Shown: in pieces, positions 29,536 through 37,464 of the stretch
Numbering within the stretch: the stretch's first letter is position 1
How the letters are laid out: each line of letters begins with the position of its first letter
Virus record (IMG/VR): IMGVR_UViG_3300009609_000001
Span: 36,268 to 100,267 of that record
Source of the DNA: a virus
Direction: 5' to 3' (one strand)
DNA: 64,000 nucleotides
Notes under the pieces: model-generated
What the model saw: the letters and a program-made list of their open reading frames with translations, nothing else
The model's database searches: none
Told to the model about the DNA's origin: nothing
Position numbers and translations under genes: made by a program

Positions 29536-29619
29536 TGCGAGCGAGAGGACTTGAACCTCCACGGGATTACTCCCACGGCGACCTCAACGCCGCGCGTATG
29601 CCAATTCCGCCACGCTCGC
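29536..29619 (-). tRNA. trnL: tRNA-Leu(GAG), 84 nt, CCA not encoded
   Basis: Acceptor GCGAGCG/CGCTCGC-A, D arm TGGCGGAATTGGCATACGC, anticodon loop TTGAGGT, long variable arm, T arm GGAGGTTCAAGTCCTCT. Confidence 0.95.
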
Positions 29620-29822
29620 CAATTCCTACGCCGCTTTGCGTTGATGATACCCTCAACTTTATTTCCTAAAGTTCGCTTAGCTTTTTGCTTGGCGCAGCCG
29701 CGCGCGTTAGGCAACGTCGAATGCGCACGCTATCGCGCTTAGGACTTGAGGAATTTTGCTTACAAACGCTCAAGCTCTAGTCAGTTTCTTGCCAATAAAA
29801 ACAAGTGGGCAGGAGAATCGAA

Positions 29823-30665
29823 ATGGACGACCGCACTTTGCTGCTGTTCGTCGGGGATTACCGTTTAGAGCGGGACGTGAGCGACGGCACGATTGCCTAT
29901 ATCCGGGTGACCGTGCGGCGCTTCTCGGATTGGCTCAAGAAACCGGCGACTCTGGACGACCTGGAAGACGATCTGGTCAACCGCTGGCTGGCGTCGCTCT
30001 TGGACGATGGGCTAGCGCGGCCCAGCGTGAAGGGACATAGAGGCAACCTCTTGAGTCTCTGGCGGTGCGCATTCGAGCGCGAGCTTGTGAGGCTGCCGCC
30101 GCGCAGGGTGAGAAAAATCAAATGCCCGCGCACGCTCCCCGAGGCGTGGGAGATTCAGCAGCTTCAATCGCTGCTGACTGAGGCAGAGAAAATGCCTGGC
30201 TGCTTCCGCTATGTCCCGCTATCGTGGGCGGAATATCTGCGGGCGCTGATTCTGGTTGCTTGGGATTCCGGGCTTCGCCTGGGAGATTTGCTGACGCTCC
30301 GCTTCGATCAGGTTGGCACGGACGGCTCGCTGATCGTCCGCCAGAACAAGACGGGGGAGAGTATCCTGCGCAAGCTGCGGCCCGAGACGATGGCGGCCGT
30401 GCAAGCCACGGAACGGGCGCGGCGCGAATTGATCTTCGGCTTCGTCCACTCGCGGCAGGTGATGACCGTATTCAAGCGGCTGGTGAAACTTGCCGGGCTG
30501 CGCGGCGGCACGAGGAAAATCAGAAAGAGCGGCGCGTCGCACGTCCCCCGTGAAGAGGCTAAGGATTACCTGGGGCATCTGTCGGACCATTTGGCGCGCA
30601 GGCACTACATCGACCCGCGGCTAGGCGACCGGAAAGATCCGCCGCTTCCACCGAAGATCGCATAA
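29823..30665 (+). CDS. int: Tyrosine recombinase/integrase
   Basis: SGLRLGDL, NKTG, RKIR at the HxxR position, LGH, catalytic Y in RRHY; AGGAG RBS. Confidence 0.88.
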   Translation: MDDRTLLLFVGDYRLERDVSDGTIAYIRVTVRRFSDWLKKPATLDDLEDDLVNRWLASLLDDGLARPSVKGHRGNLLSLWRCAFERELVRLPPRRVRKIKCPRTLPEAWEIQQLQSLLTEAEKMPGCFRYVPLSWAEYLRALILVAWDSGLRLGDLLTLRFDQVGTDGSLIVRQNKTGESILRKLRPETMAAVQATERARRELIFGFVHSRQVMTVFKRLVKLAGLRGGTRKIRKSGASHVPREEAKDYLGHLSDHLARRHYIDPRLGDRKDPPLPPKIA

Positions 30666-30921: not shown

Positions 30922-31254
30922 CTAGCCGGCCTCCAGGTCGATGAATCGCTCACGCCGAAACGGCACTTCCCGCTGATCCTCCATCAGCTCGCGGATGTGG
31001 CTAGCGGCAATGATGGCGTGGTCGCTCGCGTATCCGTCGGGGTTGATCTTGTCGGCTTCGATGCCGATGTTCTCCAGCAACGCTTGTGCGCGTGCCAGGA
31101 GTTTGACTTCAGCCGCCGTGAGCATGAGCCGCGCCGGCAACTTGCTAGGCGTAAAAATATCGCTCATGGATTGCGGCTTGTCAGGTCCGCGAAATGCGGG
31201 GTATGTATTCATCCGATTCGCCTTGGTGATTTTTGAAACAACGGTCAACGCCAC
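30922..31254 (-). CDS. Hypothetical protein
   Basis: ORF convergent on the integrase. Confidence 0.5.
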   Translation of the reverse strand: MALTVVSKITKANRMNTYPAFRGPDKPQSMSDIFTPSKLPARLMLTAAEVKLLARAQALLENIGIEADKINPDGYASDHAIIAASHIRELMEDQREVPFRRERFIDLEAG

Positions 31255-32110
31255 GATCCTGCCAAAGTGCAGGCTTCCGCCCTCTGCCCAGGGCGGTAGC
31301 GTGGACTCAGGAGGCTAGCTTTCGAGGATTCCCGTGTATTCGCCGGGGGCAGCGGCAAACACCGCGGGACCATGCGATTTTGTCAGGCGGACAGTCGTGC
31401 GAGGAGGGCTTTGTAACGCTGGCCCTCGCTGTAACGCAAAGGGTGCTGCCGGTCGCACCCTCCCAGGCGCGCCCGGCAGATAGGACGCACCGCGTCCGAC
31501 GCATCCCGTCGGGCGCGGTGTTTTTGTGCGCCGTCGGGTAGAATGGCGGGCATGGCAAACAATCAGGTTAAGCCGGGGCGGGGAGCGGTCTAGGCTGCAC
31601 AAAGCCATTCTGGTTAAAATAGCCGGGCCGGCACGCACAGGGTCATAAGTCCTGTACCGGCCCGGTAGAATGGTGGGCGCACTGCGCCAGCCGGCGATTA
31701 CGCGCCGGTCGCCGCGAACCTTACGGCCGCGGCCACCATCCCGCCCTTGCGGAGCCAGCCGCTACCAGAATAGCGGCTTTCTCCCGCGAGACGCGGGAGC
31801 CGGACGGCGCAAGGGCGTTTTTGTGGTGGATTGAAAAACCCGACCGCTGCGGTAACAGCGGCCGGGCCGTGAAGCGCGGCTATCCGACCTATTTACCCTC
31901 ATGACGGTACGGCCAATGGTGCCGCTAGTCGGGGTCACGCACTCCACTGTGTAGCCCTGTCCCCGCGTGGGGGCAGGGCAGCTTTTGTTGTCCCGAGATT
32001 CTTGGCCCAAAACAAGACGCGACTTTCCAGAAATAAAAACGGCCCGCGCAGACCGCTAGGACTGCCGGGCCGTTTGTGTTTCGGGATTGATTCGTCGATC
32101 CATCAGTTAC
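31255..32110. ncRNA. Candidate large structured non-coding RNA or structured DNA region
   Basis: About 850 nt without a convincing ORF and densely tiled by hairpins and multi-stem junctions. Confidence 0.5.
32037..32075. terminator. Probable bidirectional terminator
   Basis: AAACGGCCC...GGGCCGTTT with A-run before and T-rich run after. Confidence 0.65.
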
Positions 32111-32116
32111 CGCTTC

Positions 32117-32506
32117 CTATTTTGCGACGCTGTATTGGTGATTCTTCGCTGAGATTCTGACGGACGTTATCTTTCGCCTGCGCAGCAGACTGGATAGCGT
32201 GGCATAGACCACCTTTTTCGGATTCTCTGCCGACGTTTTAATCTGGTCGTGAAGGGCTTCAGCAATCGCCGCCGCGTTGCTTCCGGGTTTGGACTGCAAG
32301 TAGTCGATGACGATCTGCGTAATTGGCTGATTCTTCTTCCTGGGCTTCCTGGGCTTCTTGGCCACCGGCGCGCCGTTCGACTCTTTTGATCCGGCGAATT
32401 GGTTGAACAGATCCGGGTACTGCGTGAAAATGTCCCGTAATTGCCGGGCAGCTTTCGCGCGTTCCTCCGCGTCCCGAACCAATTTATCGATCCTGCTGCT
32501 TTCCAT
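32117..32506 (-). CDS. Putative winged-helix DNA-binding protein
   Basis: Coiled N-terminus, basic linker, IVIDYLQ...AAAIAEAL...VYATLSSL. Confidence 0.6.
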   Translation of the reverse strand: MESSRIDKLVRDAEERAKAARQLRDIFTQYPDLFNQFAGSKESNGAPVAKKPRKPRKKNQPITQIVIDYLQSKPGSNAAAIAEALHDQIKTSAENPKKVVYATLSSLLRRRKITSVRISAKNHQYSVAK

Positions 32507-32944
32507 TTTTGCGCTCGCTTCAAATTTGCCGGTTGACGAAAAATCACCGTTTCTATACCATTAAACGAAGAGCGGACGGGAACGCCTTTCGGCGAACGCG
32601 CCTACTCTATCGGTCGCCACCTCGCTAAGGTTGCGACCACTCTAGTGCCTTGACGTGAGAACCCAGGTTGATGTTGTGGTCGGCCTGGGTTTTCTCGTGC
32701 GCTCTCCGCACCACCCTGAAATCTATCGCGATGACAGCATCGTGACAATCTGACTTGCCTTGTGCAAGAGCAATGCACGCTGGGAATCGCGACGGAGTTC
32801 TGGCCCGAAGAGAAGCCCGCGCTGCCGGTTGAAATCCCGCTTGAGGCCAAGCCGTTTGACTTCGATTTCGCGGAACTGGAGTGGGTCGGCTAGCGGCGGC
32901 CGATGCGCCCCAGGAACGACTGGAGTTCCTGGGGCGTGTGCAGC

Positions 32945-33412
32945 CTACTGCTGACCATAATACAGAACATCCAATTGTGATGGCTCTGTATCTAGGGCGA
33001 AAGCCAGTTTTTCGATTGTGAAATCGGCCGGAGCATGCTGGCCCGACTCCAAGCGGCTGATGTGACTTTGTGGCAGCCCGGACTTTTCAGCCAGTTGTTC
33101 CTGTGTCATGCCGAGTTCTTTCCGCCGCCGGCGGATCATTTCCCCAACGTGGCGATGGTATGCTTCAACCTTGGCAATTGCGGTTGGAGGTACTCCCTCT
33201 TGTGGGTCCGCTGTTCCGTGGCGTTGGCGCAATTCGGGAGTACAAATCTCCTCGATGGCCCCCGCGATTTCCATTTGCTCGTCGCGGTCATCGGATTCCC
33301 GGAGAAGCTCCCACAGGCGATCAACGCGCTTTTTCTTTTTTGCCGAGAGCCTGAGATAGCATTGCACGAATTCCTGAACGGCTCCTCCATTGTTATCTGA
33401 TACAGTTTGCAT
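32945..33412 (-). CDS. XRE-family HTH regulator (HigA-like antitoxin or repressor)
   Basis: IRRRRKELGMTQEQLAEKSGLPQSHISRLESG. Confidence 0.9.
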   Translation of the reverse strand: MQTVSDNNGGAVQEFVQCYLRLSAKKKKRVDRLWELLRESDDRDEQMEIAGAIEEICTPELRQRHGTADPQEGVPPTAIAKVEAYHRHVGEMIRRRRKELGMTQEQLAEKSGLPQSHISRLESGQHAPADFTIEKLAFALDTEPSQLDVLYYGQQ

Positions 33413-33665
33413 AAAAATAATCCTCCCGGTTAGGCTGGTAGACTCCCGTTCCAAATTGGGTGATGTCCAGATCGGCAAGTGCGGGTCTGTCGCCGAAGTC
33501 CACCAACCGTTTGATGGTCTTTACGACGTGCCAATACTGAAAATCTGTAAGGAGCGCCCGTCCTTCGTCTTTTGCTTGCGACAACACAACCAGCGTAATT
33601 GGCTGGTTGCCTTCTACGTCATTTGCTTTGCTATCCCCGTCCCCCCGTCGTTCACCGTCTTCCAT
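33393..33665 (-). pseudogene. Possibly truncated RelE/HigB-like toxin
   Basis: Toxin position upstream of XRE gene; N-half RelE-like, expected C-terminal strands absent. Confidence 0.4.
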
Positions 33666-33790: not shown

Positions 33791-34335
33791 TCCTTGCAAG
33801 CGGTTTTTCCGCGAGAATCTGGCGGCAGTGCCAGCGAGCGGTGAGCCCCTTGTAACGAAACGAAATAGGCCGGTTTCAGGGGCTTACGTTACAAAGCCGT
33901 GCGAGGAGCGCAAATTCCCTGCGTCGTTTTCGGGGCGATCGTCGTGCGAATAAGATTGTCGCCAGCATCGTAAGCGTTGCATTCCCGCGAAAGCAGCACG
34001 GCCGGCATGCCACCGTCGTACTCGTACTCGCACTCGTGGACGTAAAAATAACCGTGGCCCTCTACTTCGGCGACCCCGGAAAAGCCGGCGACTGCGATCC
34101 AAGGCCGCGCTACTGCTCTGCGATTCCGCCACCGTCGTGCTGCTATTCGCGGCCGGCGTGTTCACGCTCAAGGATCTGGTATTCGAGGGCTGCGTCTGCT
34201 ACGCGCTGTCGGCGCTCAACTGCGCTGCGGGCCGGCTGCTGGTGCTGCTGCCGGGTGAGCCGTGGTGGCGGGATTGGCGTCGGGGGTAATGGTTGGTAGA
34301 ATAGGTTGAGTCACTTATATGTGGGTGCTTATATT

Positions 34336-34815
34336 ATGCGCAAACCGGCGCGCGAAAAGGACAGCGAAGCGGTGCGAGTCAAGATCGCCCAATGGTATCG
34401 ATCTGGGTGGACTCAAGCTCTTATGGCTAAAGAACTTGGGATGACTCAGCCAGCAGTTTCCCAGCATCTTGCGTCGATTCGCGCCGAGTGGAAACAGTCA
34501 CGACTGGAGGAGTTCGAGGCGGTAGCGGAAGTCGAGCTGGAAAAGCTCGACGCACGGGAGGCCGAGTTGATCGCTGCCTACGAGCGAACGCCGCTGGAAA
34601 ATCGCACCGTGGAGCTGGCGGCCAAGTTGTCGGATTCCGTGGTGAACATCGTAAAACGCCGTTGCGGCATCCGTGGCACGGACGCTCCGAAGAAACCTGA
34701 CGGCAGCCCAGTTGATGCCGATCCGATGGAGCCGCGTCAGGTGCTTCACGAGCGGCTGCGCACCAGGTTGAACGAGCTGATTAAGGCCGGGCTGGTGCGG
34801 CCGGGCAACAACTAA
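34336..34815 (+). CDS. Putative terminase small subunit (HTH)
   Basis: N-terminal HTH GWTQALMAKELGMTQPAVSQHL, helical core, first gene of the late arm. Confidence 0.7.
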   Translation: MRKPAREKDSEAVRVKIAQWYRSGWTQALMAKELGMTQPAVSQHLASIRAEWKQSRLEEFEAVAEVELEKLDAREAELIAAYERTPLENRTVELAAKLSDSVVNIVKRRCGIRGTDAPKKPDGSPVDADPMEPRQVLHERLRTRLNELIKAGLVRPGNN

Positions 34816-35973: not shown

Positions 35974-37464
35974 GTGATGCTGCTCTCACCCGGACAGCTC
36001 GAAGACATTCTCGCGCTCAAGGACGATGAGCAGATCAAAGAGGATGTCAGAAAGGAGTTGACGTACCAATATTACAGCTTTCACCCTCGGGTTGATATTC
36101 CAGAGGATTTTGAGGAGCAGACGGCGTTTATTGAAGCGGACCCAAGCGTCGTCAAATTTGCCGTGGCGCTTGGTGGAACAGGATCCGGTAAGACAATTGC
36201 CGCCGCCGCCAAGACAGTCGATTTTCTGGCTTACAACAAGCCGCCCCGTCCGCGCTGCCCATTCTGGGTCATTGGAGAAACCTACGATCTAGCGTGTGGC
36301 GTATGCTGGAATGAAAAGCTCTTTAACATGATCCCGAAATCATGGGTGATTCATACTGCTTGGATTGACCGCGCTCGCAACTGGCCTGCGGCAGTTCTAC
36401 TCAAGGACGATCCGCTGTCAGCACACCCGGAGATCGGCTGGATTCTGGAATTCAAATCATACGCGCAGGGCCGTGAACGGATGCAGGCAGCGAGCATCGG
36501 GGGCTACTGGTTCAACGAAGAAGCCCCGTTCTCGATCATTGAGGAGGTTCAGGGTCGCTGCCGGGATTACGATTCCCCAGGTTGGGCCGACTTTACGCCG
36601 GTTGATATCCGCTCCCCCGAGTGGCAGGAAGCATACGAGAATCCGCCTGAAGGCTGGCAGTTCTTCCACCTGAACACGGAGCGCAACTCCTACATCAACC
36701 AGGAGTGGATACGTCGCTATCTGGCCAGGCTGCCGGAAGACGTGCGCGAGACGCGCCGCGTGGGCGCGTTCAGCAGTTTTCGCGGGCAGGTGTTCAAGGA
36801 GTGGAACAAGAAAATCCACGTCATCGAGCCGTTCGAGATTCCACACGATTGGCACCGGATACGCGGGTTGGATTTTGGCTTCAACAATCCATTCGTGTGT
36901 TTATGGTGCGCCAAGGACCACGACGGCCGCTATTACGTGTACGATGAGCACTATCAATCTGGCCAGCTCAACGCCTACCACGTCAAGAAAATCAAGGAAC
37001 GCGAGTGGAACGATAACAGCCCGTACTACGGACAGACCTACAGCGACCACGACGCCCAGGAGCGCGCGGAGCTGATGAACCTCGGGATCCACTGCACGCC
37101 GGCGCGCAAGAATGTTTTGCTTGGAATCGAACAGCTTCGATCTCTGTTGATGGTCCAGGCTGACGAACGGCCGATGCTGTACGTGTTCAAGCAGTGCGAA
37201 AACCTGATCCGCGAGTTCGGCAGCTACAAATGGCCGGAAGGGACAGACCGAAAGAATCCCAAGGAACTGCCTCTGCCGGTCAATGACCATTGTTTGGATG
37301 CGCTTCGCTACGTCACGCATTCCGACGCTATCCGCCTCTCCGGCCCGCCCACGGCCATGAAGCGAGTCTGGCAGCCCAAGGAAAGCCTGCGGTTCAAGCG
37401 GAGTGTGCGGGAGCGAGTCGCCTTCAACGGGAATGGAAAGAATGGAAACGGCCGAAAAGATTGA
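35974..37464 (+). CDS. terL: Terminase large subunit
   Basis: Walker A GGTGSGKT, WFNEE Walker B region, FTP coupling motif, nuclease GLDFG and NDHCLDALRY. Confidence 0.95.
   Translation: MMLLSPGQLEDILALKDDEQIKEDVRKELTYQYYSFHPRVDIPEDFEEQTAFIEADPSVVKFAVALGGTGSGKTIAAAAKTVDFLAYNKPPRPRCPFWVIGETYDLACGVCWNEKLFNMIPKSWVIHTAWIDRARNWPAAVLLKDDPLSAHPEIGWILEFKSYAQGRERMQAASIGGYWFNEEAPFSIIEEVQGRCRDYDSPGWADFTPVDIRSPEWQEAYENPPEGWQFFHLNTERNSYINQEWIRRYLARLPEDVRETRRVGAFSSFRGQVFKEWNKKIHVIEPFEIPHDWHRIRGLDFGFNNPFVCLWCAKDHDGRYYVYDEHYQSGQLNAYHVKKIKEREWNDNSPYYGQTYSDHDAQERAELMNLGIHCTPARKNVLLGIEQLRSLLMVQADERPMLYVFKQCENLIREFGSYKWPEGTDRKNPKELPLPVNDHCLDALRYVTHSDAIRLSGPPTAMKRVWQPKESLRFKRSVRERVAFNGNGKNGNGRKD

Follow-up and report, generated by a model that had tools for sequence, protein, structure and literature searches.

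A gene-free, hairpin-rich island between the integrase and repressor genes of a phage that probably infects Pirellulales

The window analysed here is a 64,000-nt stretch of DNA taken from an IMG/VR virus record of 100,267 nt (bases 36268-100267), and this record has direct terminal repeats. Genes are encoded on the minus strand left of ~29.4 kb and on the plus strand from ~34.3 kb onward. Between these two blocks lie a tRNA-Leu(GAG) gene, a tyrosine recombinase (integrase) gene, two ORFan genes and an HTH repressor-like gene, and the large terminase gene is found to the right of the repressor (Table 1). The two minus-strand ORFan genes enclose a gene-free island of 904 nt with a GC content of 63%. 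The island starts ~550 nt from the end of the recombinase gene and 1.6 kb from the tRNA gene, and it is located close to where GC skew and gene orientation turn. The recombinase is of the generic Xer-like type, and none of the integron-integrase-specific models gave a match to it.

The nearest terminases are at most 59% identical to that of the phage, and those with a named source sit in Pirellulales or Planctomycetota MAGs, so that the phage probably infects a member of Pirellulales. Identity between the phage tRNA-Leu and the tRNAs of five candidate host genomes is only ~80%; therefore, the true host is not among these five. A search for relatives of the flanking proteins left both as ORFans, and one other contig, of 100,285 nt, encodes identical flanking proteins. 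The sole relatives of the 96-aa protein are giant proteins of 2,377, 2,386 and 799 aa. One segment of ~40 residues matches eight times in both the 2,377-aa and the 799-aa protein, and the phage protein is therefore read as a stand-alone copy of a repeat module.

Table 1. Features of the locus, numbered by position in the window. Energies are in kcal/mol. The fourth column gives the stems of the preliminary description as they were reproduced.
Feature	Position	Strand	Stem reproduced	Basis or remarks
tRNA-Leu(GAG)	29536-29619	minus		ARAGORN
Xer-like tyrosine recombinase (integrase) gene	29805-30665	plus		
Left flank, 96-aa ORFan gene	30922-31212	minus		codon log-odds; length counted from its ATG
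Island, gene-free and rich in hairpins, between two minus-strand ORFan genes	31213-32116			codon log-odds, family searches, folding
H0 hairpin	31262-31311	strand-neutral		z -4.0; 3' arm contains GGCGGTAGCGTG
Candidate extended -10 (TGnCAAAAT) for the 96-aa gene	31377-31385	minus		relaxed promoter scan; low confidence
H3 hairpin	31444-31481	minus		-27.0 vs -22.5 on plus; 2 G-U on minus; weak U tail
T1, predicted intrinsic terminator, 15-bp GC-rich hairpin and T5	31487-31526	plus	31487-31521 (15 bp, then T5)	-29.5 vs -25.6 on minus
P1, T5-GTGCGCC-N6-TAGAAT-GGCGGGC	31521-31551	plus		-10 at 31539-31544; putative start at A31552
Leaderless mini-ORF, 13 codons	31552-31593	plus		MANNQVKPGRGAV, then stop; read from the sequence
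G-run, candidate antiterminator	31575-31583	plus		folding; pairs with 31739-31747 (T2 5' arm)
t3, hairpin 31623-31665 with tail CUAUUUUAA	31613-31665	minus	31623-31665	-28.2 vs -25.4 on plus
P2, second copy, GGTAGAATGG(T)GGGC	31664-31678	plus		-10 at 31666-31671; putative start near 31679; medium confidence
Four-way junction, closing stem and three hairpins	31670-31739	strand-neutral	31670-31739	-40.8 and -41.7
T2, three-way junction (10-bp basal stem, two 8-bp hairpins), then T5	31742-31824	plus	31742-31817 (10 bp enclosing two 8-bp hairpins, then T5)	-48.6
t2, predicted terminator, 13 bp, U5 on minus	31834-31867	minus	31838-31867	-25.3 vs -18.6 on plus
T3, predicted terminator, 11-bp hairpin and AGCUUUUGUUG	31954-31990	plus	31954-31979 (11 bp)	-24.0 vs -19.5 on minus
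T4/t1, predicted bidirectional terminator	32026-32086	both	32037-32075	z -5.2; closes the 129-aa gene on minus
Right flank, 129-aa ORFan gene, downstream of the HTH repressor gene	32117-32506	minus		codon log-odds
HTH repressor-like gene	32945-33478	minus		
Large terminase gene	35974-37464			right of repressor

The preliminary description of this DNA had regarded the region as free of ORFs, and the codon statistics agree with it. All ORFs of at least 30 aa inside the island scored negative or near-zero in codon log-odds, compared with +29 to +57 for the neighboring genes, and none of them matched Pfam or PHROGs. A gene-free region of this length had also been called unusual. The region is indeed long, but it is not unique, since it is the third-longest gap in a crude gene map, after gaps of 1417 and 1036 nt.

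Further features were noted between the island and the end of the repressor gene. An sRNA-like unit at 32533-32693 on the plus strand, which diverges from the 129-aa gene, consists of a putative promoter, TTGACG-N17-TACCAT, and ~125 nt with three hairpins (z -5.0). Its last hairpin is a predicted terminator (32661-32690, then UUUUCUCG), and no Rfam family matched the unit. A 43-aa acidic ORF (VQEQCTLGIATEFWPEEKPALPVEIPLEAKPFDFDFAELEWVG) at 32762-32893 on the plus strand, antisense-adjacent to the repressor, has the top per-codon coding score of the neighborhood (0.47), and no family match was found for it. A 15-bp hairpin (32894-32945, z -4.8) is located between this ORF and the convergent repressor gene, which ends at 32945 on the minus strand, and U-tracts are absent on both sides of it. 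Genome-wide, only one plus-strand window of 150 nt is more structured than the one at 32884.

Folding of the island was far stronger than chance. The folding check proposed in the preliminary description gave a whole-region z of -7.87 for the plus strand and -9.21 for the minus strand against dinucleotide shuffles. Folding was also calculated in 150-nt windows over all 100 kb, with energy regressed on GC content. After this correction, the lowest 900-nt mean z of the whole 100,267-nt genome starts at window 31234 on both strands, and among the 25 best windows of each strand, 8 (plus) and 7 (minus) come from the island. Unit-sized pieces of the island fold well alone (z -4.2 to -5.2), and the long-range helices of the global fold are missing from the centroid structure. 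All seven stems that had been listed were reproduced in place. The structures of the island are thermodynamic predictions throughout.

Simple hairpins followed by a U-tract were scanned on both strands of the whole genome. At a dG of -15 or below, 54 hairpin terminators were found, 7 of them in the island, where 0.49 are expected. At -22 or below, the island holds 5 of the 13 found genome-wide (0.12 expected, Poisson p ~2e-7). The five strongest are T1 and T3 on the plus strand, T4/t1 on both strands and t2 on the minus strand. Their dG values range from -24 to -29.5, and with the branched T2 and with t3, which is weaker, the terminator-like elements number seven. A GC-rich hairpin with a U-rich tract, the hallmark of an intrinsic (Rho-independent) terminator, was predicted at T1, T3, T4, t1 and t2.

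Most wobble pairs had been described as G-U on the plus strand. This is correct for T1, T3 and some small hairpins, but minus-strand folding is favored for the stems at 31838-31867, 31444-31481 and 31623-31665, of which the first and the last also carry their U-runs on that strand. T1 and T3 are better on the plus strand by 4-4.5 kcal/mol through G-U pairs. Conversely, t2 is better on the minus strand by 6.7 kcal/mol, three of its G-U pairs being A-C mismatches on the plus strand, and H3 and t3 likewise favor the minus strand. In T1, T3, t2 and t3, the preferred strand is the one that carries the strong U-tract. The four-way junction, T2, T4 and H0 are strand-neutral, and their strand assignment depends on P2 and the U-tracts only. 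The alternating strand preference argues against a single large RNA and fits a mosaic of short units on both strands.

The only notable direct repeat of the island is a 15-nt sequence, GGTAGAATGG(C/T)GGGC, with one copy at 31537 and the other at 31664. These copies form the core of the candidate promoters P1 and P2, of which P2 shares the 15-mer without the upstream element and without the ATG. Both have a -10 hexamer with a 5/6 match, whereas the -35 matches at only 1-3 of 6 positions (against TTGACA-like sequences at 16-18 nt spacing). A relaxed promoter scan found no convincing -35 for P2 or for any minus-strand promoter, and the minus-strand candidates were weak. The hexamer TAGAAT occurs 6 times in the 100-kb genome, while ~21 copies are expected by an estimate from base composition. 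Five of the six belong to the plus strand and are intergenic or placed where genes end. This pattern suggests that stray occurrences of the -10 hexamer are selected against. Three of the six match GGTAGAAT(G/A)G, all of them in gene-free DNA and on the plus strand; the third of these, at 34297, has the form TTGGCG-N17-TAGAAT and stands 34 nt ahead of the ATG at 34336, where the first gene of the packaging operon begins.

The host side was searched by blastn of the island against 401 Pirellulales genomes at E <=1e-3. Eleven matches were obtained, and 7 of them fell on 31508-31564, a segment with the T1 tail, P1 and the ATG. Other weak matches, at 31677-31742, sit in long GC-rich ORFs and are judged to be compositional. 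The aligned host copies consist of a T-run, C(A/G)TGCGC, N4-6, GGGTAGAATGGCGGGN and an ATG. This ATG always follows TAGAAT at a distance of 7 nt, and the ORFs that it begins are 29-121 aa long and mostly hydrophobic. The pattern GGTAGAATGGNGGGNATG has 10 occurrences in the 401 Pirellulales genomes compared with 0 for the reversed control, and 4 of the 46 matches of the 15-mer in IMG/VR have an ATG directly after it. A cassette was defined here, not taken from a curated family, as a T-run, (C)RTGCGC, N4-6, GGTAGAATGG(C/T)GGGN and an ATG exactly 7 nt past TAGAAT. P1 fits this leaderless promoter cassette of Pirellulales throughout, and T1 doubles as its upstream part. Because of the host cassette copies, the motif count and the 15-mer matches with ATG, P1 is probably a working promoter of host type, with a putative start at ~31552.

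In the hosts, the exact GGTAGAATGGNGGGNATG core is present in 6 of the 401 genomes. The cassette with its GC hairpin, T-run, C(A/G)TGCGC, N4-6, GGTAGAATGG(C/T)GGGN and ATG was found at loci L018, L231-L234, L238 and L240-L248, where it precedes unrelated small leaderless ORFs that are mostly membrane-like. The cassette could represent a promoter type specific to a lineage, or else a promoter that is mobile. In one genome (G005), at least 13 near-identical copies of an element carry GGTAGAATGG ~45 nt from one end, after TAGTAGTTGATCTACCGCTCAATGTCAGGTTTG (loci L033, L035, L037-L041, L043, L044, L046, L050, L052 and L053). This element resembles the end of an IS, with a promoter that faces outward or inward.

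Known RNA families and regulatory elements were searched in the island and its surroundings. The Rfam check that had been proposed found no family at gathering score, as Rfam 15 gave 0 matches at gathering thresholds over the whole window. On the island at E up to 10, GOLLD, ROOL and tRNA were absent, and the best match was JUMPstart (RF01707) with 21 bits against a gathering score of 35 (E 0.13). This match agrees with an exact E. coli-type ops 12-mer, GGCGGTAGCGTG, at 31292-31303 on the plus strand, which is unique within the window and has a JUMPstart-like AGTGCA box 19 nt upstream. The spacing of this box is the usual one, and the ops motif is upstream of serial plus-strand terminators, as in JUMPstart/ops elements that act with RfaH. 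Such an element was rejected, however, since the score is below the gathering score, no NusG/RfaH homologue (PF02357) was found in the phage genome and the motif is a hairpin arm. The exact 12-mer is probably a chance occurrence, and no use of ops is known from the host clade.

A tRNA or the remnant of a tRNA array at the four-way junction was also rejected: ARAGORN was negative by default and made only implausible calls when relaxed, and RF00005 was not found. A CsrA sponge of the CsrB/RsmZ type was rejected because GGA, with 14 plus-strand and 15 minus-strand copies in the 904 nt, is about as frequent as base composition predicts and is mostly base-paired; RsmW matched the island with an E of 1.5. 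A link to a retron or DGR was excluded by the absence of a reverse transcriptase from the phage.

The search for homologues proposed in the preliminary description was carried out by BLASTn and gave none in 50,697 phage records. Blastn over 401 Pirellulales genomes and a covariance-model search over 151 of them recovered the P1 promoter only. Terminase-relative loci from IMG/VR and Pirellulales MAGs (<=59% identity) had no nucleotide or covariance-model similarity to the island. Scans of IMG/VR and metagenomes for the 15-mer, the two-copy pattern and putative seed patterns gave chance matches only.

Together, these data are explained best by short transcription units. The hairpins and their excess over chance, the U-tracts, the strand preferences, the lack of coding signal and the match of P1 to a host promoter are observed. 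In this reading, short transcription units of both strands would tile the island, each ended by an intrinsic terminator. On the plus strand, transcription from the integrase side would halt at T1. P1 (~31552) and P2 (~31679) would yield structured RNAs of ~270 and ~145 nt that end at the branched T2, with T3 and T4 as back-stops. On the minus strand, the repressor-side operon would halt at t1, while t2 and t3 would end further short units. The net effect would be to insulate the convergent transcription of the integrase and repressor sides and to produce a few abundant structured small RNAs. We give roughly even credence to this composite of promoter-to-terminator RNA units and bidirectional insulation, placed between an integration module (tRNA-Leu, integrase) and an immunity module (129-aa gene, HTH repressor). 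The unit at 32533-32693 is of like design; therefore, such cassettes recur in this module, which supports the composite reading. Among the possibilities named in the preliminary description, several small RNAs fit best, given seven terminator-like hairpins on two strands, patchy strand preference and promoters directly after terminators.

Prophage small RNAs made from a constitutive promoter and a nearby terminator include lambda 6S RNA (PR'-tR') and StxS of Shiga-toxin phages (PMC7547250). The island resembles them in having a promoter followed by an intrinsic terminator within 150-300 nt, which would give a short structured RNA in the regulatory region of a temperate phage, and read-through would need antitermination. 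It differs from them in that no sequence or model match was found and several units occur on both strands. In addition, late genes are not directly downstream of the island and a Q-like factor was not identified. The CI RNA of P4 and the C4 RNA of P1/P7 (RF01695) are comparable as structured small RNAs with serial terminators in a temperate immunity region. In contrast, the island has no match to this model and no repeated complementary target sites, and a protein repressor gene is encoded next door.

Part of the P1 unit could act as a switch. The ATG that follows P1 opens 13 codons in the phage, compared with 29-121 aa in the host copies. The P1-to-T2 transcript (31552-31826) folds with a z of -4.2, and within this predicted transcript, the G-run and 31739-31747 pair with a probability of 0.82 compared with 0.085 for the T2 basal stem. 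When the mini-ORF and 12 nt were masked to mimic a ribosome, the G-run helix was lost and the probability of T2 rose to 0.56. Dinucleotide shuffling of the first 54 nt depressed T2 equally in 4% of cases (p ~0.04, post hoc), with a shuffle median of 0.90. The efficiency of T2 as a terminator is uncertain, because its basal stem is disfavored at equilibrium in the predicted P1 and P2 transcripts alike.

An attenuator reading of these values would have the G-run and T2 compete for segment 31739-31747. Where T2 does not stop it, transcription would continue toward T3 and T4 and run antisense into the 129-aa/repressor operon. The arrangement shares with leader-peptide attenuators of the trp and pyrBI type a short 5' ORF and an internal segment that can pair with the 5' arm of the terminator. 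Unlike them, it would act on a leaderless mRNA, a distance of 155 nt that includes two stable domains separates the competing segments, and codon log-odds found no plus-strand gene beyond T2 to regulate. An attenuator-like switch in the P1 transcript is thus suggestive only. It is improbable that ribosome occupancy of the mini-ORF decides whether transcription stops at T2 and that read-through, by convergent interference with the immunity operon, plays a role in the lysis-lysogeny decision.

Other explanations of the island were weighed against the composite reading. It could be a pure transcriptional insulator, in which stacked terminators separate integrase-side and repressor-side transcription and the short RNAs are functionless by-products. 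The seven terminator-like elements, 3-4 per strand, stand exactly between opposed transcription flows, as an insulator requires. Short blastn and duplex folding of all phage translation starts gave no outlier in complementarity to the island, and no conservation was found in phage records, terminase-relative loci, IMG/VR and metagenome scans or Pirellulales genomes, which is also consistent with RNAs that lack a function. One or two bidirectional terminators would suffice for insulation, however, and the host-type promoter P1 and the second copy of its core point into the island, and neither the four-way junction nor the left-hand hairpins are terminators. Insulation as the whole explanation is unlikely, though it deserves some weight. 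The same orphan status, together with two ORFan neighbors, would suit decayed moron debris, that is, host-derived promoter-gene-terminator cassettes that have lost their genes and left remnants without present function, and the short mini-ORF behind a promoter that drives longer ORFs in hosts points the same way. But residual coding signal is absent in every frame, and folding stands far above the level of ordinary sequence in this genome, whereas decay would erode it. We consider such an origin distinctly unlikely.

A function at the DNA level was considered for attP arms, an Xer-like recombinase or resolution site, or an origin with single-stranded-DNA hairpins. The nearby end of the tyrosine recombinase gene, several inverted repeats with 5-6-nt spacers that resemble recombinase core sites, and the turning point of GC skew and gene orientation speak for it. 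The U-tracts and G-U asymmetries are features of the RNA level, though; apart from the promoter, attB-like identity is absent in the 401 Pirellulales genomes, and the complete tRNA-Leu next to the integrase is a more usual location for attP. The island does not resemble a replication origin: no DnaA box with <=1 mismatch and no relevant tandem or direct repeats were found, and the GC is 0.63. The structured single-strand origin of the preliminary description is likewise unsupported, with no iterons, DnaA boxes or AT-rich stretch, and a DNA-level site is very unlikely overall. The description had also proposed one large structured ncRNA, an analogue of GOLLD or ROOL of ~600-850 nt. Its length, the lack of ORFs, the multi-way junctions, the very low folding energy, the phage context and a tRNA gene not far away are shared with these RNAs. 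Neither GOLLD nor ROOL matched at E up to 10, however, and the strong internal terminators predicted on both strands would cut a single large transcript. These terminators and the strand preference, which flips along the region, indicate several short units instead. The long-range helices of the global fold are not retained in the centroid either, and a single large RNA is very unlikely.

Phage regulatory loci of this kind are known, and the island adds a new, orphan example. Because its sequences are orphans, generalization from it would be premature, and its value is that of a concrete target rather than a demonstrated new class. To our knowledge, almost nothing is known about gene regulation in Planctomycetota phages. 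If the island is transcribed, its units would be the first candidate regulatory RNAs of a Planctomycetota phage. It would also mark a host promoter type composed of a terminator, a T-run, GGTAGAATGGCGGGC and a leaderless ATG, which could aid the annotation of small genes and the development of expression tools in Pirellulales.
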